Shown: positions 7,968 through 30,275, counted from the first letter of the stretch. The stretch is DNA of 30,596 nucleotides from an uncultured archaeon (GCA_964476035.1 CAYYZD010000002.1:1-30596); one strand, 5' to 3'. Program-made: numbers and translations. Notes: a model not told the origin generated them from the sequence alone.

Positions 7968-8168
7968 ATGCTAATTTATGAGATTGAAGCTCTATATAGA
8001 ATCCTAAGAAAAACTGTGAAGATTTTGGAGGAAGGCTATGAGCGTATTCCTAGTAGGTTTAATGCTAAGAACTATGTCTTTCGTTCTTTGCAAAATTTAA
8101 AAAGCGCAGAGAAAATTGCTACAAATATTTGGAGGAAAATATTTGAGCAGGAGAATTCCAGCTGTTAA
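7968..8168 (+). CDS. Small hypothetical protein (66 aa)
   Basis: Fills the gap between tfs and the RPA14-like gene; amphipathic helical character. Confidence 0.55.
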   Translation: MLIYEIEALYRILRKTVKILEEGYERIPSRFNAKNYVFRSLQNLKSAEKIATNIWRKIFEQENSSC

Positions 8169-8481
8169 TAGGAGGATAAGTGAGATAAAGCTTGAAGATA
8201 GGCGTGTTAGAATAGTTGGTATGGTGGTAGAGTCTAGACCTGGTATGTGTATTCTGGATGATGGCAGTGGTAGTGTTAAAGTTCGAACATCCCATAAATT
8301 ACATGCTGGAAAGTTAATAAGGGTGATAGGGCAAGTTTCTATAAGAACAGATGGCGAGATTGAAATAGATGCCGAATTACTTCAGGATATGGATAAATTA
8401 AAATTTGATCTTTATAAAGAAGTATATAGTTTGAAAAAGAAGTTTAAAAATGTTCAAGCTAAACATTTAGAGGAGGGATAA
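8143..8481 (+). CDS. Single OB-fold protein, RPA14/RPA3-like subunit of replication protein A (track start 8116; TTG 8143 has a GGAGGA RBS)
   Basis: RRIPAVNRRISEI...RVRIVG.V...LDDGSG...GKLIRVIG...IDAELLQD resembles Thermococcales RPA14 as I recall it. Confidence 0.75.
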   Translation: MSRRIPAVNRRISEIKLEDRRVRIVGMVVESRPGMCILDDGSGSVKVRTSHKLHAGKLIRVIGQVSIRTDGEIEIDAELLQDMDKLKFDLYKEVYSLKKKFKNVQAKHLEEG

Positions 8482-14076: not shown

Positions 14077-17000
14077 TTAATCCAGAACTATAACCCTGGT
14101 TTCTAAGGTATACCCCTTTGCAAAATTAATTGTTATAATTATTATTTTACTACCTATTACCGACGTACAATTGAATACTTTTAGTGTAGTTGAGTTCCCC
14201 GGATATATAATGGTCGACCCATTAAATTCGCAAACTGTACCGTTAATTTTAATTGTTGATATTTCTAGCTGCTCTATGCCAAGGTTTGTAACATTTATAA
14301 TCACTGTTCCATTTGTAAATGCTTTAGCACTAATATTGGCAAAAGGTACCACCGCGACCTTTGTTACTGAAGTTTTGTTCGACCACCGCGGTACAAAGCT
14401 GAAATTGTAATACACTGTAACATTCACTATCTGTGAAACGTTAAGAACAAGACCTGTACTCACCTTTAGTACAGCAGTTTCACCACTACTTAGCGTGGAA
14501 CTTCCACTAACTGTCTCAAAACTGTAAAGAGTTCCATTAACGGCAATGTTACTGATATTCAGCGGCAAATCCATGGGATTAGCAACTGTTATGGTTACGA
14601 CTCCGTTAGTATATGCTGTTGCACTCTTGACGTGAAGAATAAGTGATGGAGTTGGAGCAACGCTGACATTTGCGGTGGTTGTTAATGTTCTGTTTGGGGC
14701 ACCTACTGGATGATAAGTTACGTTTACTGCCACCGTTAGTCCCTTTAGTTTTGAAGTTTCGTTGAAACCTAGGTCTATTACAAAAACCGATTCCTCTTGC
14801 GGGAAAATCGCTAATGAACCATTAAATATATTAAAAACAGTCTCTGTTGAGTTTATTTTAATAGAATCAACTGTAACTGGATAGCCTCCAATATTTTTAA
14901 CCCGAATAAAGCCTATACCGTTATCATAAACTATAGACCTTGTTTCATCGATATCAAGAGATATCTGAGGAGTTTCAAGAATATTGGCGTTTACGGATTT
15001 ATAAATTCTGTAGCCAGGATACTCCGGAACATCTGCTATAACTTTAATTGATACATTATCACCAATAAACCATTTTTTTCCAGTATTAACGAAAAGATCG
15101 ATTGCTTCTTTTGGTTTTAGTGTTTGTTCGTCACCTATAATCTCAAAGCTATATGTTTTACCATCTATATAAACCTTTGAGAGAGAAATTTCATGAATGC
15201 CTGTATTATTGACTTTTATAATAAACAGTCCATTAGCATACGGATTAACCTCTACTATTTCCATCCTTGCTTCCAATATGCTATAGTTCACCTCGTATAT
15301 CTTAACAAATCGGTTACTCGAAAAGTAAGCTGGCTTAAATATTTTCTCGAAAAGCGTCCAGTGTCCCGGATCGACAATTAAAGTTAAGTATCCGTAGGGA
15401 TCCGAGCGGTAAAACAGGTACTTGTCAGCCAAATTATTTCTTTGTATGAAATCTATCAAGTATCCGCAATACCTACTACTACGATCAGGTTCCCCGTAGA
15501 AAAGCATTTTATAGATTGTAGAGTTAAGTAGTGTTCCAGTTGGATTGGTGATTTCTCCGTAAAGACTTTCATTTATTAGCTCTGGGAAATGGTCCTCCGC
15601 GATTCTAACCATCCATGGCCACTTAAACTCGTCACCACCAAGTCCTTGGTAGCAGTATCCGAAAAAGACAAGCACATGCGTTACGTTGTATCGTTTGTAG
15701 ATCTTTACCGCTTCTGTTTCATTTAGCGCAAATGCTGCCCCCATCCATGCGATTTGTGTACTGTTAAGGGTTGCATTGTCAACCAGTGTTGTTTTGTTGG
15801 CCACGGTGTTTATCCAATATCCATAGTCCCACCAAGAAGCTACTATCGCATCTTCTGGTAGATTATATCGCATCCACATAAGAGTTTCTTGCCAATCTGG
15901 CTCCCCGTTAGGTAACATTTCTACCCCGGCCATGTATTTTGACGAAACATAGGCCCCATAATATGTTGTTATGATAAGTAATGATGCGATGAAAATTAGA
16001 GTTATAATCGTATATTCTGTGCCGACAATACCTGAAATCCTCGCTCTTTTCCGTCTTGCCAAAGGCATACCTTCACGTATTTCTGTCAAGACGCCTACAA
16101 ATGGAGAGAGGATTTGATCGATGGCATATGCTGAAAGAAGACAGACTACTGGCGAAAGTATTAATACTAATCTTATCATTGATCCAGCAAAGTATGTGGC
16201 CGTTAACCCCAGAACTATAAGAAAGATGTCTTCATTTCTTAAACGTTTAAACGAAAAATATATTCCAAGTGGATATATAAACAAGAGAATGTGTAGATTG
16301 AAGTAGAATTCAGACCATGAAGTGGCTGCATGCTCTGCTACTGAAGCTATTATACGCGCTTTTTCCCTATATAAAGGATTTAATACCGTCAAGAATTTTC
16401 CACTTATAGGCTTTATATATTTCTCCAGGATTTCAACAAAAGAAAATCCAGTATACCATGAATATGTAAAAACGAAAGATACCATTACAGCGAAGGTCAA
16501 AATTATGTACCCTAGAATTCTTCTTTGAATCTTAACCTCTATAATTCGTTTAGCTACTGATGAATTATACACCGTTGGAATTGCTTCATAAATAAATAAC
16601 AATATTAGCATAGCTAGGGCTGGAAGCAGATCAGTTTTAGTTAATATAGCTGGTCCGAGTCTTGGTACCCTTGTAGCTATAAGGAAACCAATGCTTATCG
16701 TTGTAGTATAAGATAAAAGAAGTGATCTGGAATATCTATGCGAAATGAGAAGTAAGAACGCATAAACAGCTAGTAAACCATACACATACACATATGCTCC
16801 CCATGATGCCGATAAATATCCAAGAACGAGCCCCGCAATAACCCCTGAAAGTATTGACTCCCTTTTTAATGATCTTATAAAGAAATATAGAGTCGCTATT
16901 ATTAGTAAAATGCCTATTGCTTCGTTGTCGTAAAAACCTGCAGTTGTACGTTGAACATATCCTGGTACAAATGCAAGGAAGAAAGCTGCAAGTAATCCCG

Positions 17001-17475
17001 CCTTCGTACTATCACTTATCTCCTTAGCGAGGAAAAACATGGCAATTGATGCTAAAGCTCCCATAAATGCTGGGAAAAAGAAACAAAGAACTGTTGGATC
17101 TATTTCGATCCCCAAAAACTTAAGTATGAAGTATAGAGTTGCTGTTGTCCATGGTATTCCTGGGAAAGATGTTTTAGGCATATTACGGCCATAGGGGTAC
17201 CATGTTGAAATGTTCGGAGGTTTCTCTATCCAATTAAACCAAGCTGAAAAACCATGAGTTATAATGTATAAGGTTGATTTTAGTTGAAAATATGGATCAT
17301 ACGCCTTAAGTATTGCTCCGTACGAGAAATATGGATAAATTCTTATTAATAGGGCAAAAAAGAATACTAGAGTAAGTGAGAAATACAGGATTAGTTTATC
17401 CTTTCTAATTTTTGCTTTAGGTATGGTAATCAATGATTTTAATGAACTTCCAAGCTTCTTTAGTTTTTCGGCCAT
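14077..17475 (-). CDS. aglB: Oligosaccharyltransferase AglB/STT3 with four extra C-terminal beta-sandwich repeats
   Basis: Multi-TM N-terminus; YDPYF, GFYDNE, SVAEH, WWDYG and DNAT motifs; 1132 aa. Confidence 0.95.
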   Translation of the reverse strand: MAEKLKKLGSSLKSLITIPKAKIRKDKLILYFSLTLVFFFALLIRIYPYFSYGAILKAYDPYFQLKSTLYIITHGFSAWFNWIEKPPNISTWYPYGRNMPKTSFPGIPWTTATLYFILKFLGIEIDPTVLCFFFPAFMGALASIAMFFLAKEISDSTKAGLLAAFFLAFVPGYVQRTTAGFYDNEAIGILLIIATLYFFIRSLKRESILSGVIAGLVLGYLSASWGAYVYVYGLLAVYAFLLLISHRYSRSLLLSYTTTISIGFLIATRVPRLGPAILTKTDLLPALAMLILLFIYEAIPTVYNSSVAKRIIEVKIQRRILGYIILTFAVMVSFVFTYSWYTGFSFVEILEKYIKPISGKFLTVLNPLYREKARIIASVAEHAATSWSEFYFNLHILLFIYPLGIYFSFKRLRNEDIFLIVLGLTATYFAGSMIRLVLILSPVVCLLSAYAIDQILSPFVGVLTEIREGMPLARRKRARISGIVGTEYTIITLIFIASLLIITTYYGAYVSSKYMAGVEMLPNGEPDWQETLMWMRYNLPEDAIVASWWDYGYWINTVANKTTLVDNATLNSTQIAWMGAAFALNETEAVKIYKRYNVTHVLVFFGYCYQGLGGDEFKWPWMVRIAEDHFPELINESLYGEITNPTGTLLNSTIYKMLFYGEPDRSSRYCGYLIDFIQRNNLADKYLFYRSDPYGYLTLIVDPGHWTLFEKIFKPAYFSSNRFVKIYEVNYSILEARMEIVEVNPYANGLFIIKVNNTGIHEISLSKVYIDGKTYSFEIIGDEQTLKPKEAIDLFVNTGKKWFIGDNVSIKVIADVPEYPGYRIYKSVNANILETPQISLDIDETRSIVYDNGIGFIRVKNIGGYPVTVDSIKINSTETVFNIFNGSLAIFPQEESVFVIDLGFNETSKLKGLTVAVNVTYHPVGAPNRTLTTTANVSVAPTPSLILHVKSATAYTNGVVTITVANPMDLPLNISNIAVNGTLYSFETVSGSSTLSSGETAVLKVSTGLVLNVSQIVNVTVYYNFSFVPRWSNKTSVTKVAVVPFANISAKAFTNGTVIINVTNLGIEQLEISTIKINGTVCEFNGSTIIYPGNSTTLKVFNCTSVIGSKIIIITINFAKGYTLETRVIVLD
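14080..15270 (-). repeat. Four degenerate ~90-105 aa protein-level tandem repeats at the AglB C-terminus
   Basis: Repeat cores PYANGLFIIKVNNTG, VYDNGIGFIRVKNIG, AYTNGVVTITVANPM, AFTNGTVIINVTNLG, each followed by i..i.iNG/DG and l.P.E-like segments. Confidence 0.75.
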
Positions 17476-17599: not shown

Positions 17600-18730
17600 A
17601 TGAAAGAAAAAACATGAAAGATAGGGTTTATCGTCAATCCCATAGCCGGAATGGGCGGAGTTGTGGGCTTAAAAGGTACGGATGAGGAAGTTATTTTGAA
17701 AAAAGCCCTAAAATTAGGGGCAAAACCAGTTGCTCCCAAAAGAGCAGAGGAAGCCCTAAAAAATCTATTGCCATTAAAAGAACACTTAGAATTAATTACT
17801 TACCCCCATAATATGGGTCAGGACGAAGCAGTTAGTGTCGGGTTTTCACCCATGGTAATCGGAAATATAACTCCAGGAAAAACATCGGCAAAAAGATACC
17901 AAGCAAGCAGCAAGAGAAATGAAGAAACTTAAAGTAGATTTGATTGTTCTTTGCGGCGGCTGCGGCGGCGACGGAACTGCTTGTGACATTTACGAGGCTA
18001 TTGGTGATAGCGTCCCTTTTATTGGCGTTCCAGCAGGAGTAAAAATGCATAGTGCAGTTTTTGCAGTAAACCCGAAAGCTGCAGCAGAAGTTGTAATCAA
18101 ATTTTTAACTGAGGGACTTCCTTTAAGGCAGGCAGAAGTTATGGATATAGATGAAGATGCTTTTAGAACTGGTGTACTTTCTGCAAAGCTGAAAGGTTAT
18201 CTTCTAGTCCCGTATGAACCTGAACTTATGCAAGGTGTAAAGACATCTAGCCCCTTAACGGCAAATGAAGAGGAAAATAAGATGGCCACAGCAAGATACA
18301 TTGTTGAAAATATGGATCCTGAAATATTTTACATTTTGGGTCCTGGTACAACTACTAAGGTCATTGCGGACCTTCTAGGCGTTAAAAAATCTTACTTGGC
18401 GTTGACATTATAAAAAACGGGAAAATAATTGCTAGAGATGTTGGAGAAAAGAAAATCTTAGAGGTAATAAGAGGTAAAAAAGCTAAAATTATTGTAACAC
18501 CCATTGGAAATCAGGGCTTCATCTTTGGTAGAGGGAATCAGCAAATAAGTCCCAAGGTCATTAGAGAAGTCGGCATCAAGAATGTTATTGTTATAGCGAC
18601 ACGGTATAAGCTTTCTACAATAAAATATTTGAGAGTTGATACCGGTGATGAAAGTTTAGATGAAGAATTAAGAGGATATACCCGTGTGATTGTTGATTAT
18701 AATGAAGAAAAAGTTGTTAAAGTAGTTTAA
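17600..18730 (+). pseudogene. ATP-NAD kinase / AcoX-like (COG3199) gene with several disruptions
   Basis: IGFIVNPIAGMGG.VGLKGTD, GGDGT, GVPAGVKMHS, GPGTTT and GQGF-like NQGFIFGRGNQQISP motifs spread over three segments. TGA at 17615-17617 (or an extra A after ATG 17614), +1 in the A-run 17890-17894, -1 near 18390. Confidence 0.85.
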
Positions 18731-24200: not shown

Positions 24201-24761
24201 TTACCATGGTTCCCTTTTTAATTTTAGCATATAACCAATGATGTTTGCACTTAGATGAATTAAAGGCGTTATTATTAGAAGAATAGCTACATACTTTAGT
24301 TGTAAGGATCCTATAAGATTAGTGAATACTATGGCACCAAGAAGGAAATCTAATTGATCTAATAAAGGCGCAGGTGCTCCTCTTTTCAAGCCAAATCTCC
24401 TTTTAATAAATGAACCAATAAGGTCACCAAACATTGCTCCAAACGAAAGAAGAAAACCTCTTAAAACTGATGCTTGAATGAGAAAAACTTCATGAAAGCC
24501 TATGACATAATAAATTGAGACTACTTTCACGAGGTATGGCGACATAATTACTTGTACCAAGCTTGCCGCAACACCCGTAATAACGCCGCCTATAAAACCT
24601 CCGACAGTTTTCCCATCTCCAAATATTCGTTTTCCATCTATGAAAATTTTACCGAAGTCTATGGGAGGTCCCCCGCTGAATACAACAGCAAGAGCGTTTG
24701 CGATATATGCGGGTAAAATAAACCATAAGGCTAATAATACTTCGAGCCAGAGTGGTAACAT
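24201..24761 (-). CDS. carS: CDP-archaeol synthase (DUF46)
   Basis: LPAYIANA, PID.G...DG.RIFGDGKT, GDLIGSFIKRR.G..RG..AP.LDQLDF. Confidence 0.92.
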   Translation of the reverse strand: MLPLWLEVLLALWFILPAYIANALAVVFSGGPPIDFGKIFIDGKRIFGDGKTVGGFIGGVITGVAASLVQVIMSPYLVKVVSIYYVIGFHEVFLIQASVLRGFLLSFGAMFGDLIGSFIKRRFGLKRGAPAPLLDQLDFLLGAIVFTNLIGSLQLKYVAILLIITPLIHLSANIIGYMLKLKREPW

Positions 24762-24771
24762 TTCATCACCT

Positions 24772-25449
24772 CTACCTTAAGCCACTCGATGTTATAGAGA
24801 ATGATGTTGAGATCCCTAACGGTTTATTATAATGCTTCATTATCTCTGCTTTTCGCTTGATACCTTTTTCCCGAATAAATTTGACAACTATGCTAGCCCA
24901 CCAGTTTATAATATTAGATGCAACAGCCTCTAAATTTTCTTCCTCAAAGGAAGATCTAACTTGATTTGTCAGGAGAATTGCTACATTTTTCTTTTTAGCT
25001 GTCTTAAAAAGAAAAGCCATTTGCCGATTAAGTTCATGCTGCAAGACATGAGTATCTCTATATTCTAGTAATTCTGCCCGATATAACCCAGTTATCGTGT
25101 CAAAAACTACAAGACGAACACTTCTTTCACACATTTCGTCAAGAATATCGATTAAATCGGACTGTTCCGTAAAGGTGGAAGGGCGGAATATCATAATTCT
25201 TTCCATTACAGACTGAAAAGAGTGTTCAGAAACTTGTTTAAGTCTTTCGATAGAAAAAGAGCCTTCAGTATCTACAAAAATAGTCTTATAACTATTTAAA
25301 GCGGAATTAACAGCACATTGTAGAGCAAAGGTTGTTTTTCCGACACCTGCAGGACCATATATGTGAGTTATATGTCCAACTGGCAGTCCTCCGCATAATA
25401 GCTTGTCTAATTTCTTACAACCAGTCATCACTGATGTTAACATTTTCAT
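24772..25449 (-). CDS. radB: RadA paralogue RadB
   Basis: LCGGLPVGHITHIYGPAGVGKTT, FVDTEG.FS.ERL, LLTNQV; no N-terminal HhH domain. Confidence 0.88.
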   Translation of the reverse strand: MKMLTSVMTGCKKLDKLLCGGLPVGHITHIYGPAGVGKTTFALQCAVNSALNSYKTIFVDTEGSFSIERLKQVSEHSFQSVMERIMIFRPSTFTEQSDLIDILDEMCERSVRLVVFDTITGLYRAELLEYRDTHVLQHELNRQMAFLFKTAKKKNVAILLTNQVRSSFEEENLEAVASNIINWWASIVVKFIREKGIKRKAEIMKHYNKPLGISTSFSITSSGLR

Positions 25450-25545
25450 TTCCTCGTCTCAAATATTTTCAGTAAGAAATGGAAACAAATATATTTAACT
25501 GTAGAACCTATTATGGAATTCTGTAAAATGTGGAGCAGTGAAGAT

Positions 25546-26355
25546 ATGGCAAAGGTAGCAGTGGTAACAGAAAAGCCAAAAATTTTCCATTTAGTCTCAA
25601 AAAAACTTAAAGAACTTGGTATTCCATTTTACAGTCTGCTTCCCGTAGAAAAAATACCTCAAGATGTAGTTATAATTCTTACGAGTATAGAAGAGGTAGA
25701 AAAAATACAAAAAAATATTAATGCACATATTATAGCGACAAGCGCCAATATGGACGATATTAAAAAAGCAATTTTAAAGATGAAGGTTTTGCTAACTGGA
25801 TACAGAAGGAAAGCCCAGGTTGTAATAGGTATAGACCCCGGCGACATATATGGCGTTGTTGTGACCTTTGAGGGAAAAGTAATTGATACGGGTCTCTTTC
25901 ATTCACCCCACGAGGTTGCTAATTACATAAAACTTGTAGAAAATGCTTTACTATCGTTTTCAAAAGGTGAATTGATTATTAAAATCGGTAATGGCTCCCC
26001 TTTACATCAAAGATGGCTTTTTAGATACCTTAAGAACGCCCAATTACGTGCCAGTTATGAGATTGTTGATGAAACTTATACTACAATGACCAGGACTAAA
26101 TTCAGGAAAAGAGACATCACGGCTGCTATGCTTATATCAAAAAAGAAAGGAAGGATCATAGATCTCGATCAAACCGATATATCGTTAAAACCTGGAGAAA
26201 TAAAACATATTCAAGCAAGAAGCAGAGTATTATCTAATGGAAAGATAACAATAAGCTGGAATCTTGCAGAGAAGGTAGCTAAGGGGGAAATATCGTTAAA
26301 AAAGGCTGTGAAGATTATGGAAGACCGCATGAAACCTGGAGGTAAAAATGTCTGA
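25546..26355 (+). CDS. Conserved hypothetical protein with RNase H-like (YqgF/RuvC-type) motifs (track start 25513)
   Basis: VVIGIDPG, IVDETYTT, RDITAAMLI motifs. Confidence 0.65.
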   Translation: MAKVAVVTEKPKIFHLVSKKLKELGIPFYSLLPVEKIPQDVVIILTSIEEVEKIQKNINAHIIATSANMDDIKKAILKMKVLLTGYRRKAQVVIGIDPGDIYGVVVTFEGKVIDTGLFHSPHEVANYIKLVENALLSFSKGELIIKIGNGSPLHQRWLFRYLKNAQLRASYEIVDETYTTMTRTKFRKRDITAAMLISKKKGRIIDLDQTDISLKPGEIKHIQARSRVLSNGKITISWNLAEKVAKGEISLKKAVKIMEDRMKPGGKNV

Positions 26356-26707
26356 GATTATTTTTGAAGAGAAAATAGAAGAAAGGGGTTATAAGATTTC
26401 CATATTGGGTATAAAACTCACCAATGGAATAATAGTAGTTGTTACAGATACCACATACAAAATTGGAACAATTGCGCTTGCAACTCCCTCAAGGATCCCT
26501 GAAGTAGGGAAAAGAGCAATTTCGTCACTGCTTACAGCCTTCGACATGACGAAAGAAGCAGTTACACGCGCTATTGCAGAAAGATTAGCTAGTGAACTTA
26601 ATACGGTCGTTCTAGCCATAGTTAACATAAGAGAAAAGAACTTAGATCGATACAAAACTATAGTTAAGGGTATCAACAATTTAATCAAGAAAATCAAGGG
26701 ACAGTGA
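26348..26707 (+). CDS. Proteasome assembly chaperone 4 (PAC4/Pba4)-fold protein, possible LpdD-like prFMN chaperone
   Basis: Beta-rich N-half with KIGTIALATP, then AIAERLASELNTVVLAIVNI resembling the PAC4 'la.rLark....vfvs.n' helix; stop overlaps the ubiX GTG. Confidence 0.55.
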   Translation: MSEIIFEEKIEERGYKISILGIKLTNGIIVVVTDTTYKIGTIALATPSRIPEVGKRAISSLLTAFDMTKEAVTRAIAERLASELNTVVLAIVNIREKNLDRYKTIVKGINNLIKKIKGQ

Positions 26708-27270
26708 TAGATTTGGAATTAATTGTAGCATTAACTGGGGCAAGTGGAGTAATATACGGTGTTCAACTACTGAAGACTTTAAAAAGAATAAAAGCAAAAA
26801 TTCACTTAATTATTTCAGAGCCAGCCAAGGTAATCATTAAACACGAATTAAATTTAGATATAGAGGAAATAGAAAAGCTTGCAGACTTCACTTATGATCC
26901 CTGGGATTTCACAGCGCCTATCGCTAGTGGTTCTTATCAATCGGATGGGATGGTAGTTATACCTTGCAGTATGAAGACCCTCTCTGCAATAGCTAATGGT
27001 TACGCGGATAATCTTATTGTTAGAGCTGCTGAATGTATGCTAAAAGAAAAGAAGCCATTAATTCTTGTCCCTAGAGAAACCCCTCTGTCCTTGGTTCATT
27101 TAAGAAATATGGTTAAGGCTGCGGAGGCAGGTGCAATAATAATTCCCGCAATGCCAGGATTTTACCACAAACCTGAAACCATCGAAGATCTTGTAAACTT
27201 CATAGTGGGGAAAATTCTTGACATACTGGGTATCCAACACGACTTATATAGGAGATGGGGAGGAAAGTGA
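26704..27270 (+). CDS. ubiX: Flavin prenyltransferase UbiX
   Basis: ALTGASGVIYG, APIASGS, PCSMKTL, DNLIVRAA, LVPRETPL, PAMPGFYH.P. Confidence 0.96.
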   Translation: MIDLELIVALTGASGVIYGVQLLKTLKRIKAKIHLIISEPAKVIIKHELNLDIEEIEKLADFTYDPWDFTAPIASGSYQSDGMVVIPCSMKTLSAIANGYADNLIVRAAECMLKEKKPLILVPRETPLSLVHLRNMVKAAEAGAIIIPAMPGFYHKPETIEDLVNFIVGKILDILGIQHDLYRRWGGK

Positions 27271-28610
27271 GCTTAAGGAATTTTATATTAGAACTGGAGA
27301 AAGATGCAGAATTAATAACCATTAAAAAGGAATTAAGTACCAAGTATGAGATAGCTGCTGTAATCAAAAAGTTCGATAATGGTCCGGCTCTTTTTTTTAA
27401 AAAAATTAAACAAAAACGCGGCTCGATAGTTGCAAACATTTGTGGCACTAGAGAAAGAGTCTGCAAAGCCCTAGGAACTAGTATTGATAAATTACATAAA
27501 AAAGTATCAAATGCTATTAAAAACCCAAAAAAACCGAAACTTACAGAATTCCTTCTCTCCAAATATGCTCAAAATCCTCCAAACATAAACAGTCTTCCAA
27601 TACTTACCCACTACGAAAAGGACCCCGGACCTTACATAACAGCTGGAATCGTATTTGCAAGAGACCCAGAGACTGGAATTCAAAACGCATCAATACACAG
27701 AATGTTAGTTATTGACGAAAAACATCTAGCTATAAGAGTTGTACCTAGACACTTGCATAGAATAATAACAGCTTACTGGAAGGAAAAAAGAGATGTACCC
27801 GTAGCCATTGCCATTGGAACCCACCCAGCGGTTCTAATTGCTGCATCATCGCCAGTCCCCTACGGTGTAAATGAACTTCATGTAGCAAACACTCTTCTTA
27901 AGGAATCTATGGAAGTTGCTATATGTCCAAATACGGAACTGGAAGTTCCAACAAATGCAGAAATAATTATTGAAGGAAAAATTTTATACGGTAAAGAAGT
28001 TGATGAAGGGCCGTTCGTCGATTTAACGGGAACCTACGATGTTGTAAGAAAACAACCTGTAATAAAAATAGAAAAAATGTATTTTAATCGGGATAACTTT
28101 ATTTATCAGGCTATTTTGCCTGGGGGAAGCGAACATAAATTGTTAATGGGCCTTCCGAGGGAGGCACAAATATGGACTGCTGTTAAGTCTGTTGTTCCCG
28201 ATGTAAGAGGAGTGCATTTAACTTTAGGCGGTTGTGGATGGCTGCATGCAGTCGTTTCCATTAAAAAGCAAACTGATGGAGATGCTAAAAATGTTATATT
28301 GGCTGCTTTCGCAGCTCATCCAAGCCTTAAACATGTTGTTGTAGTTGACGACGACATAGATCCTTATGATATGGAAGAAGTGGAATGGGCAATTGCAACG
28401 AGATTTAATGCTTCCCGAGACTTGGTGATAATACAAAATGTTAGAGGCTCAAGTCTGGATCCTTCTGCGGACCAAATTACTCTTATGACTACAAAAATGG
28501 GAATTGATGCTACAAGACCATTTACTAAACCTAAAGAAAAGTTCGAAAAAGCAAAAATACCCATCGAAGAGAAAATCGACATTAATAACTTAACAGAGGA
28601 AGACAATTAA
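27255..28610 (+). CDS. ubiD: UbiD-family prFMN-dependent decarboxylase, probably trans-anhydromevalonate 5-phosphate decarboxylase
   Basis: DPGPYITAG, NASIHR, EGPFVDLTGTYD, EH..LM, VVVDDDIDP...EVEWAIATR, KMGIDAT; adjacent to acnX. Confidence 0.9.
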   Translation: MGRKVSLRNFILELEKDAELITIKKELSTKYEIAAVIKKFDNGPALFFKKIKQKRGSIVANICGTRERVCKALGTSIDKLHKKVSNAIKNPKKPKLTEFLLSKYAQNPPNINSLPILTHYEKDPGPYITAGIVFARDPETGIQNASIHRMLVIDEKHLAIRVVPRHLHRIITAYWKEKRDVPVAIAIGTHPAVLIAASSPVPYGVNELHVANTLLKESMEVAICPNTELEVPTNAEIIIEGKILYGKEVDEGPFVDLTGTYDVVRKQPVIKIEKMYFNRDNFIYQAILPGGSEHKLLMGLPREAQIWTAVKSVVPDVRGVHLTLGGCGWLHAVVSIKKQTDGDAKNVILAAFAAHPSLKHVVVVDDDIDPYDMEEVEWAIATRFNASRDLVIIQNVRGSSLDPSADQITLMTTKMGIDATRPFTKPKEKFEKAKIPIEEKIDINNLTEEDN

Positions 28611-29830
28611 TGTTTCTAACTAAAGAAGAGGAAAAAATGTTCGATGGAGAATATGGAGAAGCTACTAGGCTAGCAGTGAGGTTAATTGTTAAAGTTGGAG
28701 AAGCTTTAGGCGCTCAAAAATTAATTGACGTAAGTAGTGCGCAAGTTTCGGGGGTATCGTATAAGAACATCGGAGATCCGGGCATCCAGCTCCTAGAAGA
28801 CTTAGTTAAACTTGGAGGGAAAAGTAGAATACTATCAACGCTTAATCCAGCTGGTATGGACTTAAAAAACTGGAAAAAAATGAAAATCGATAAAGATTTT
28901 GCAGAAAAACAACTAAAAATAATTAATTTGTACATACAAATGGGCATCCTCCCAACATGTAGCTGTATACCTTACTTAATCGGTAATTCGCCAAAATATA
29001 GGGCACATATAGCATGGGCAGAATCCTCTGCAGTAACGTACGCTAATTCGGTTTTAGGTGCGAGAACAAATAGAGAGGGCGGACCATTAGCCCTTGCATC
29101 AGCTTTAACCGGGAAAACTGCTTTTTATGGGTTTCATATCGAAGAAAATAGATTCCCAACACACTACATAGAGTTAAGGACTAAGTTGCACAATCCAGCT
29201 GATTACAGCATTTTAGGTTATGTAGTTGGTAAAATAATAAAAACTGGTGTCCCCTTGTTTTCAAACCCTAGAGTGCCCCTAAATGTAGATTGCTTAAAAG
29301 CTTTATCGGCCGGTCTGGCAACTTCAGGAAGTATATCTCTATTCCATATAGAAGACTGCACAATAGAAGCTATGATCGAAAAAAGGCGATTACAGATCGA
29401 AAAAGGCCATATGGAGAAAATAATAATAGAAAAAGAAGAAATAAAGTCTGTTTATGAAGAATACGCATTAACCTCTAGCCCAGATCTCATATACATCGGG
29501 TGTCCTCATGCAAGCATACAAGAAATAGGAAAAATTGCCAAGATGTTAAGAAATAGGAAAATAAAAGGAGATATCGAACTGTGGGTTGGAACTGCCGCTA
29601 ATGTAAAGACACTCGCAGACAGAGCTGGTTATACGGATATAATAGAGAAATCTGGTGGCAAAATTATTACAGATACGTGTATAGTGGTTTCGCCTTTAAA
29701 GTCGCTTGGATTTCAAAAAATTCTTACAAATTCCGCAAAGGCATGTTACTACCTGACAGGTTTAGAAAGATTAAACGTGGGAATAACGACATTAGAAGAC
29801 AGCGTTAAAACTGCCATAGAAGGGTCATGA
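28610..29830 (+). CDS. acnX: Aconitase X large (catalytic) subunit, probably phosphomevalonate dehydratase subunit 1
   Basis: QVSGVSY, TCSCIPY, AWAESSA..YANSV.GARTNREGG, IGCPHAS, DTC.VVSP (Fe-S Cys ligands). Confidence 0.9.
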   Translation: MFLTKEEEKMFDGEYGEATRLAVRLIVKVGEALGAQKLIDVSSAQVSGVSYKNIGDPGIQLLEDLVKLGGKSRILSTLNPAGMDLKNWKKMKIDKDFAEKQLKIINLYIQMGILPTCSCIPYLIGNSPKYRAHIAWAESSAVTYANSVLGARTNREGGPLALASALTGKTAFYGFHIEENRFPTHYIELRTKLHNPADYSILGYVVGKIIKTGVPLFSNPRVPLNVDCLKALSAGLATSGSISLFHIEDCTIEAMIEKRRLQIEKGHMEKIIIEKEEIKSVYEEYALTSSPDLIYIGCPHASIQEIGKIAKMLRNRKIKGDIELWVGTAANVKTLADRAGYTDIIEKSGGKIITDTCIVVSPLKSLGFQKILTNSAKACYYLTGLERLNVGITTLEDSVKTAIEGS

Positions 29831-29831
29831 T

Positions 29832-30275
29832 ATGCATAAAGAAAACAAAAAAGTAGTATTGAAAGGTAGAGGACTAGTTGAGGGGTTAGTCGAGGGAAAA
29901 GCCCTTGTTACCTCTCAGCCTATCTCATTTTACGGTGGTGTTGACCCATTAAGTGGTGTTGTTACCGAAAGAGGACATGAACTTGAAGGAAAAGTAATAT
30001 CTGGTAAAATTTTGGTTTTTCCTTACGGTAAGGGCAGCACAGTGGGCTCGTATGTTATTTATCATATGGCAAAGATAGGATCAGCCCCTTTAGCAATAAT
30101 TAATTTAGAGTCAGAGCCAATAATTGTTGCGGGATGCGTGCTTGCAAACATACCTCTAGTAGATAAGTTAGATAAAGATCCGATTAAAACGATTGAAACA
30201 GGGGATATAGTTCAGGTAGACGGAACTCATGGATTTGTGGTCATATTATCAAAGCCTCAGAAACATAAACAATAA
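29832..30275 (+). CDS. Aconitase X swiveling-domain small subunit, probably phosphomevalonate dehydratase subunit 2
   Basis: ISFYGGVDP.SG, GHEL.G..I.GKILVFP.GKGSTVGSYV. Confidence 0.92.
   Translation: MHKENKKVVLKGRGLVEGLVEGKALVTSQPISFYGGVDPLSGVVTERGHELEGKVISGKILVFPYGKGSTVGSYVIYHMAKIGSAPLAIINLESEPIIVAGCVLANIPLVDKLDKDPIKTIETGDIVQVDGTHGFVVILSKPQKHKQ

Follow-up and report, generated by a model that had tools for sequence, protein, structure and literature searches.

A stretch of DNA of 30,596 nucleotides (nt) from an uncultured archaeon (GCA_964476035.1 CAYYZD010000002.1:1-30596), called the window below, carries a gene for a small protein of 119 amino acids (aa) directly upstream of ubiX, ubiD and the two acnX genes of the archaeal mevalonate pathway. 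The protein is predicted to share the fold of the proteasome assembly chaperones PAC3 and PAC4 and of LpdD, a bacterial helper of UbiD decarboxylases. It belongs to an archaeal-looking branch of this family, termed 'His-less', whose genes recur next to ubiD in Bathyarchaeia and Asgard archaea. We propose that it is a dedicated accessory factor of the UbiD enzyme, here anhydromevalonate-phosphate decarboxylase (AMPD), assisting the loading or maturation of its prenylated flavin mononucleotide cofactor (prFMN), and we put the chances of this proposal at about even. Its observed basis is the fold, the homology to LpdD and PAC4, purifying selection on the gene and the conserved gene pairing.

The gene (26348..26707, + strand) was called as an open reading frame (ORF) with an ATG start, and a Shine-Dalgarno-like GGAGGT motif was read in the sequence 4 nt 5' of this codon (26338..26343, + strand). 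Its TGA stop (26705-26707) overlaps the GTG start of ubiX (26704-26706) in the tetranucleotide GTGA (26704..26707, + strand), and the junction reads ...ggacaGTGAtag. The identical 4-nt overlap was called in the Baldrarchaeia loci L001-L004. The flavin prenyltransferase gene ubiX, whose product makes the reduced cofactor prFMNH2 (26704..27270, + strand; TIGR00421, E = 1.4e-80; PF02441, E = 2.8e-49), is followed by a gene for a UbiD-family decarboxylase with all three Pfam domains, UbiD_N, UbiD and UbiD_C (27255..28610, + strand; TIGR00148, E = 1.3e-138). The GTG at 27267 may be the true start of ubiD, in 4-nt overlap (GTGA) with the TGA of ubiX; in relatives, ubiD is called with a 4-nt overlap to the preceding gene. 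The ubiD stop overlaps in TAATG with the start of the gene for the large acnX subunit (phosphomevalonate dehydratase, large; 28610..29830, + strand; PF04412, E = 4.9e-149), after which comes the small or swivel subunit (phosphomevalonate dehydratase, small; 29832..30275, + strand; PF01989, E = 2.6e-33; NF003046, E = 3.8e-49). From this context and published pathway knowledge (PMC11052028), the window UbiD is assigned as AMPD. Together, ubiX, ubiD and the two acnX genes correspond to the set of genes known from the archaeal mevalonate pathway (PMC11052028), and they stand clustered as such a module in the window. The same order was found in L001-L004, L013, L020 and L022. The arrangement of the 119-aa gene, its GTGA overlap and the four genes behind it had been described in an earlier, sequence-only reading of this DNA, and both the nucleotide sequence and the family matches bear it out.

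The 119-aa ORF is a real gene and evolves under purifying selection: in comparison with three Baldrarchaeota orthologues of about 77% aa identity, the ratio of non-synonymous to synonymous substitution rates was 0.155-0.169, while ubiX gave 0.081. The nearest relatives, at 64-99% identity and with gene order kept, came from metagenome-assembled genomes (MAGs) of Candidatus Baldrarchaeia/Baldrarchaeota, and a profile scan of genome contigs returned two Baldrarchaeota MAG loci only. The window sequence occurs in DNA metagenomes of hydrothermal vents and sediments; the matching runs were all DNA metagenomes, and no RNA run with the sequence was found among them.

The AlphaFold2 model of the small protein, calculated from 150 sequences, reached a predicted local distance difference test score (pLDDT) of 86.6 and a predicted template modelling score of 0.83, with a topology of five strands, a helix, a strand and a C-terminal helix. 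In a Foldseek search of the PDB, all 18 matches with a probability of at least 0.97 were PAC3, PAC4, Pba3/4 or LpdD, and any other fold first appeared at E > 0.1. Chain 8qyj_L was matched with E = 5e-7 and a template modelling (TM) score of 0.70, and the PAC4 chain 8qyj_M with E = 9e-7 and the top TM score (0.78/0.82). The LpdD structures 8pzh, 8pzo, 8po5 and 8p4w followed at E = 7e-6 to 6e-5 and TM 0.63-0.66 (8pzh: E = 7e-6, TM 0.63), together with PAC3 (2z5e, E = 1e-5) and Pba3/4 (2z5b, E = 3e-4). Structure prediction and Foldseek, the checks proposed with the sequence-only reading, thus led to the PAC3/PAC4/LpdD fold and to nothing else.

Sequence profiles gave a fainter picture of the same relationship. 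The Pfam family PF21758 (PAC_bac, renamed LpdD_chaperone) matched the window protein with E = 1.7e-5 and 24.9 bits, below its cut-off of 27. The PAC4-like sequence pattern noted earlier is a real resemblance, but it too remained below the Pfam cut-off (PF16093, E = 3.7e-5, 24.1 bits against 31). Other ubiD-linked archaeal members scored 26.2 and 26.4 bits against PF21758 or did not match it, and a phmmer search of the PDB with the single 119-aa protein returned nothing useful. In the databases the family goes by "hypothetical protein" and once by "PAC4 family protein", and the Pfam LpdD_chaperone profile matches some of its members weakly.

The pairing with ubiD was followed from both sides. 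A metagenome scan with five AMPD-type UbiDs as queries gave 80 loci at 45-79% identity, 74 of them with at least 400 nt of upstream sequence, which were analysed by ORF calling and hidden Markov model (HMM) searches. In 34 of these 80 loci, a His-less gene directly preceded ubiD on its strand, with a 4-nt stop/start overlap in 26 of the 34 pairs. Since only one pair had ubiX between the two genes, and none was found between or near the genes of the other 33, it is ubiD rather than ubiX that is the conserved partner. The UbiD tree placed the pairing in three clades, namely a large Bathyarchaeia clade, an Asgard clade including the window, and L019/L060; it was absent from sister clades and from methanogen-like clades. 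All trees were neighbour-joining trees, and that of the small protein is weakly resolved at this divergence. The paired small proteins of both searches formed nine clusters at 50% identity, labelled Candidatus Bathyarchaeota or Asgard, and homologues down to 16-28% identity kept the position directly upstream of ubiX or ubiD.

From the side of the small gene, 11 divergent His-less clusters were looked up, nine of which were informative, and in five of these nine lineages the gene lay directly upstream of ubiX or ubiD. In the clade of the window and the Baldrarchaeia, as in cluster P0015, it precedes ubiX. The order in P0046 (27-28% identical) is MoxR-VWA-small gene-ubiX-ubiD-acnX-acnX, and a second Baldrarchaeia lineage (P0134, 28% identical) carries the gene directly upstream of ubiX/ubiD. 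In P0099 it lies 38 nt before ubiD, without ubiX, in a non-syntenic neighbourhood of RFC, Sec61beta, MazG and primase genes (L019). The association with ubiX and ubiD anticipated from the window alone was thus recovered in Asgard archaea and Bathyarchaeia, with two amendments: the partner is ubiD, not ubiX, and some relatives stand beside psmB or PAN.

An exhaustive profile search extended the family to 523 clusters at E <= 1e-3. The window clade formed one cluster at 50% identity, and its next match scored 68 bits. Of 158 sequences that were sorted, the window protein included, 134 were canonical LpdD-like, with the invariant motifs GG, PH.G, GH(K) and GIH; these cover His35 and His61 of LpdD, and Asp63 falls in the adjoining GHK[DE]. 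The window protein sorted into the His-less group. Column conservation, computed over 41 non-redundant members of this group, singled out N26, D/E34, K/R38, G40, T41, P47, G66, K/R68, R/K74, A77, E78 and K86. Position 34 is D/E where canonical proteins have G, position 38 is K/R where they have His35, and the residue at the position of His61 is variable and often acidic. At the family-conserved positions the window protein has N26, D34, K38, G40, T41, P47, R74, A77 and E78; at positions 66 and 68, which are G and K/R in most members, it has D66 and T68, with K69 adjacent. A core of G40, P47, G66, K/R68, R/K74, A77 and E78 is common to both groups, and the same loops are conserved. Within the canonical subfamily, the domain is fused to a CTP-dependent riboflavin kinase (PF01982) in four clusters (P0035, P0086, P0097 and P0121), which links this subfamily independently to flavin metabolism and flavin mononucleotide synthesis, and to DUF6485 in one cluster (P0153). 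The sole canonical member checked for context, P0008, is not near UbiX or UbiD.

UbiD itself differs between paired and unpaired loci. In the window, the conserved ..AKIP is followed by a C-terminal tail, IEEKIDINNLTEEDN (28563..28607, + strand; UbiD residues 437-451), and an adjacent small gene goes with a UbiD that is longer by about 20 residues. Tails of 9 aa or more were present in 38 of 39 paired loci against 3 of 40 unpaired ones (Fisher p = 8e-18, phylogeny uncorrected). The net charge of the tail was anticorrelated with that of the C-terminal helix of the small protein (Spearman -0.50, naive p = 0.002, again uncorrected for phylogeny): tail and helix carried -5/+6 in Baldrarchaeia and +1 to +5/-1 to -4 in the main Bathyarchaeia clade, with a within-clade switch in L054. 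The tail is a candidate docking element, and these suggestive figures are a lead towards direct contact between tail and helix, not proof of it.

In the accessory role proposed here, the Bathyarchaeia and Asgard branch is inherited with, and mostly translationally coupled to, the AMPD-type UbiD enzymes that serve the archaeal mevalonate pathway. The small protein would bind UbiD, possibly via the co-occurring C-terminal tail, and help the apo-enzyme to acquire or mature the prFMN made by UbiX; we infer both the binding of prFMNH2 and the direction of its hand-over. Shuttling of prFMNH2 in the manner of LpdD is plausible by analogy, but the chemistry must differ from that of LpdD. Since the archaeal branch has K/R38 for His35 and acidic or other residues for His61 of the His/Asp metal site of LpdD, we speculate that the flavin phosphate might be contacted directly by K/R38, K/R68 and R/K74 and not through Mn2+.

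Several observations speak against such a role. His35, His61 and Asp63 of LpdD, as well as the third invariant histidine (in GIH), are absent from the window protein and from all 41 archaeal members; the window protein has K38 at the His35 site and neither His nor Asp at the sites of His61, Asp63 and the third histidine. In LpdD, the H35A exchange abolished prFMNH2 binding in vitro (PMC10865409), and metal binding was not essential according to its authors (PMC10865409). With these metal and prFMNH2 residues absent from the archaeal branch, LpdD-style cofactor binding is not simply transferable to it: of the LpdD-like accessory component suggested by the sequence-only reading, the homology has held and the binding residues have not. 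The His-less profile, moreover, finds human PAC4 as its only match in the PDB (E = 1.4e-5), and not LpdD. No small gene was found within the flank of about 6 kb in 46 of the 80 ubiD loci, nor did an enlarged HMM (--max, E<10) detect divergent homologues upstream of these 46 unpaired ubiD genes. The small gene is therefore not a universal part of the pathway, a general requirement of AMPD for it is not indicated, and the earlier idea of a fifth gene of the modified mevalonate module fails as a general statement. Two of the nine informative lineages, both Asgard, carry the gene directly after proteasome genes (psmB in L010, PAN in L009), and in two others (P0159 and P0063) it adjoins an HD-domain gene only, with neither ubiD nor a proteasome gene beside it; these four Asgard relatives share a subclade with the window protein. 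The pair also belongs to an old synteny block (carS-radB...), and simple inheritance of gene order may account for some of its conservation. Several clades break the charge rule, and the statistics on tail and charge ignore phylogeny.

The strongest competitor to an accessory factor for cofactor loading is a stoichiometric structural or regulatory subunit of AMPD, similar to VdcD in role, which would stabilise the oligomer or cap the tail and bind no cofactor; we regard it as doubtful, though it deserves more credit than the alternatives that follow. The association with ubiD and not ubiX fits both proposals equally well, and the 4-nt coupling is typical of subunits of a complex. The co-occurrence of the UbiD tail, the absence of the LpdD metal and prFMNH2 residues and the use of the PAC3/4 fold as a protein-binding scaffold in eukaryotes (PMC13022661) would all suit such a subunit, as would the precedent of VdcD, integral to active VdcCD. 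Set against this, the loops of the LpdD functional site, with K/R68, R/K74 and E78 among their shared residues, are the most conserved part of the archaeal family, which suggests that a ligand or contact site has been retained and that the protein is more than a scaffold, and the 46 of 80 AMPD-type ubiD loci without the gene within about 6 kb show that a subunit is not generally needed.

An archaeal proteasome assembly chaperone of PAC4 type, whose place before ubiX-ubiD would be inherited synteny of no functional meaning, seems to us very unlikely. It draws on the match of the archaeal profile to human PAC4, with the common stretch SSxLLGD...A.RLA.K..K..VS.NL, on PAC4 having the top Foldseek TM score, and on gene neighbourhoods. 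The Helarchaeota relative (P0009), 138 nt after the proteasome beta gene, is named "proteasome assembly chaperone 4 family protein" by NCBI, another relative (P0017) follows PAN at about 400 nt, and in P0159 PAN lies at a distance of 4 kb; that psmB or PAN should adjoin the gene in two Asgard lineages is unlikely to be a coincidence. On the other hand, neither PAN nor psmB stood next to the small gene in any of the 34 ubiD-paired loci, two phyla share the pairing with ubiD, mostly in 4-nt overlap, and archaeal 20S proteasomes reportedly self-assemble, needing no chaperones (PMC13022661). No PAC3-like second full-length paralogue was found in the about 100 loci examined. The proteasome-adjacent relatives keep the archaeal site of the ubiD-paired ones (G40, P47, G66, K68, E78), which human PAC4 has lost (it lacks G40, P47, K/R68 and E78), and they group with the window protein in its Asgard subclade instead of forming a paralogue group of their own, as far as the weakly resolved neighbour-joining tree allows. 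The sequence-only reading had set the gene apart from proteasome factors; this agrees with the window, where neither a proteasome gene nor PAN was found in 30.6 kb, and less well for the two Asgard relatives directly behind psmB or PAN.

A division into two paralogues, one linked to ubiX/ubiD and one to the proteasome, as hinted by the Pfam leanings, was considered and rejected: both kinds are mixed in one Asgard subclade and share the same site. We treated them as orthologues in changing contexts. The one second match within a locus is not a PAC3-like partner: in L009, 3 kb downstream of the PAN-adjacent small gene, stands a truncated copy of it (L009:8312-8566) that covers residues ~17-69 and is nearly identical. 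Repeats resembling leucine-rich repeats follow in a different frame, and the copy is probably the remnant of a pseudogene.

The synteny block bears on a last alternative. Its left border in the window is formed by carS (CDP-archaeol synthase, 24201-24761, - strand) and radB (24772-25449, - strand), both identified by Pfam and NCBIfam matches and divergent from the operon. The carS-radB border is found beside the small gene in the window, the second Baldrarchaeia lineage and Candidatus Atabeyarchaeum deiterrae (P0063, complete genome), and L014, L020 and L028 share the block, which is common to Bathyarchaeia and several Asgard classes and continues on the opposite strand with the small gene and ubiD. 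In L028 (Bathyarchaeia) the order is TopoI-OST3-carS(-)-radB(-), then the homologue of the 280-aa gene that opens the window operon, a Clp1-like gene, EndoIII(-), the small gene and ubiD. Genes for an HD/HD_assoc_2 protein and a PUA-PAPS-reductase-like protein come after the block in Asgard archaea, and the ubiX-ubiD-acnX cassette, present in some lineages, is missing from the same slot in Atabeyarchaeum, where it would lie between the small gene and HD, and in L008. A role of the small protein unrelated to both UbiD and the proteasome, its gene having stayed unseparated from ubiD in an ancient block, could account for the conservation of TopoI-OST3-carS-radB ... small gene ... HD-PUA/PAPS with or without the cassette, for the Atabeyarchaeum gene next to HD where ubiD is not there, and for the unrelated-looking 280-aa gene in the window operon; it is nevertheless very unlikely in view of the L019/L060 pair in a different neighbourhood (RFC, Sec61beta, MazG, primase), the 4-nt overlaps kept down to 16% identity, the UbiD tail co-varying with gene presence across sister clades and the homology to a proven UbiD helper, LpdD. 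The differing L019/L060 neighbourhood, the overlaps that persist at 16-28% identity and the tail instead argue for selection on the pairing itself.

Among known systems, LpdD (Lactiplantibacillus plantarum lp_0272; PDB 8PO5/8PZO/8PZH; PF21758) comes closest to the accessory factor proposed here. It binds prFMNH2 and assists UbiD activation (PMC10865409); the earlier account of these properties, and of its Pba3/4-like structure, proved accurate. Both proteins have the same fold and about 120 aa, both are encoded with UbiX/UbiD genes, and they are homologous at profile level. They differ in that lpdD shares a transcript with lpdB, a homologue of ubiX, apart from lpdC, whereas the archaeal gene is coupled to ubiD, and in that the archaeal partner is a UbiD with an aliphatic substrate (AMPD) whereas that of LpdD is an aromatic acid decarboxylase. 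The archaeal protein furthermore lacks the Mn site (His35, His61, Asp63), stays below the PF21758 cut-off, and a PDB search with the archaeal profile alone does not find LpdD. PAC4/PSMG4, PAC3 and yeast Pba3-Pba4 (PF16093; PDB 8QYJ, 5WTQ, 2Z5E, 2Z5B) are the best structural matches of the small protein and resemble it also in the proteasome genes adjoining two Asgard relatives; unlike in a proteasome context, however, the window gene is coupled to ubiX-ubiD, and the archaeal site residues are missing in human PAC4. VdcD, an integral part of active VdcCD (PMC10865409), and PhdC, a prFMN maturase (PMC13040415), are likewise small proteins that are encoded together with a UbiD enzyme and are required for its activity or assist it. 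General searches, none of them aimed at these two proteins, gave no sequence or fold match to either, and the analogy is functional only.

The archaeal PAC3/PAC4/LpdD branch is previously undescribed. LpdD is only rarely found alongside UbiD, and its paper does not mention archaea (PMC10865409); in the library searched, no literature was found in which an LpdD- or PAC4-like protein is brought together with AMPD or with the archaeal mevalonate pathway. To obtain active UbiD enzymes in foreign hosts is notoriously difficult (PMC10865409). The archaeal mevalonate pathway, which saves ATP, is under transfer to production hosts, and an AMPD-dedicated helper in Bathyarchaeia and Asgard archaea, if confirmed, would be an obvious part to co-express. 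It would then be only the second LpdD-type UbiD helper, with a different chemistry that does without the His/Mn site.

Judged from profile comparisons, the archaeal branch is also a true link in sequence between the LpdD family of bacteria and the PAC4 of eukaryotes: the His-less profile aligns with the canonical LpdD profile (hhalign, 99.1%, E = 1.6e-18, 122 columns) and matches human PAC4. The canonical profile finds only LpdD in the PDB (E = 5e-19). An earlier ranking with LpdD first, obtained with profile A2, was rejected as an artefact because this profile held one canonical member (P0008); the pure archaeal profile leads to PAC4. The bearing on the origin of PAC3/4 that the sequence-only reading had foreseen is thereby upheld, and with similarity to bacterial LpdD and human PAC4 and a presence in Asgard archaea, that origin becomes directly testable. 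It is conceivable, though unlikely in our judgement, that eukaryotic PAC4, and through a duplication PAC3 as well, descends directly from the UbiD-coupled archaeal family. A chaperone of a prenyl-flavin decarboxylase of isoprenoid lipid synthesis would then have been exapted in the Asgard lineage for assembly of the proteasome alpha ring. The adjacency to psmB or PAN in Asgard archaea feeds this idea, as the genes in Helarchaeota and other Asgard archaea would be living intermediates, and human PAC4 would have kept the SSxLLGD/ARLA.K motif and lost the ancestral ligand site.

The 280-aa protein is encoded by the first gene of the packed operon (25513..26355, + strand, ORF call); relatives of the gene begin at the equivalent of ATG 25546. 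The end of its ORF shares 8 nt with the start of the 119-aa gene (ATG 26348), and the six genes, 280-aa ORF, 119-aa gene, ubiX, ubiD, acnX large and acnX small, follow one another in tight head-to-tail order. For the 280-aa protein, neither Pfam nor NCBIfam gave a significant match, and a single-sequence AlphaFold2 model was poor (pLDDT 47.9). It carries a VIGIDPGD motif, of which [VI]G[IV]DPG is invariant among homologues; together with a beta-beta-beta-alpha-beta-alpha-beta pattern, this suggests an RNase H/RuvC-like core. Homologues of the gene stand divergent from radB in Asgard and Bathyarchaeia loci, for example L028:2890-3582 and L008:2503-3318(-).

Elsewhere in the window, the NAD kinase gene (17651-18413) is split over at least two frames (ORFs of 93 aa and 164 aa) and ends early, relatives having 373 aa; it is either a pseudogene or affected by frameshift errors of the assembly. 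A small protein with an oligonucleotide/oligosaccharide-binding (OB) fold (8116-8481), with weak Ten1/RPA3-like matches, is encoded upstream of PCNA, primase and GINS genes, and the STT3/AglB oligosaccharyltransferase (14077-17475) is unusually long at 1132 aa; both traits recall eukaryotes and are typical of the genomes of Asgard archaea. L018 (JAGGSW010000017.1), a MAG labelled Candidatus Odinarchaeota, has its six genes arranged as in the window and, like the MAGs of Baldrarchaeota, a small protein with 77% identity to that of the window; the label may be wrong.

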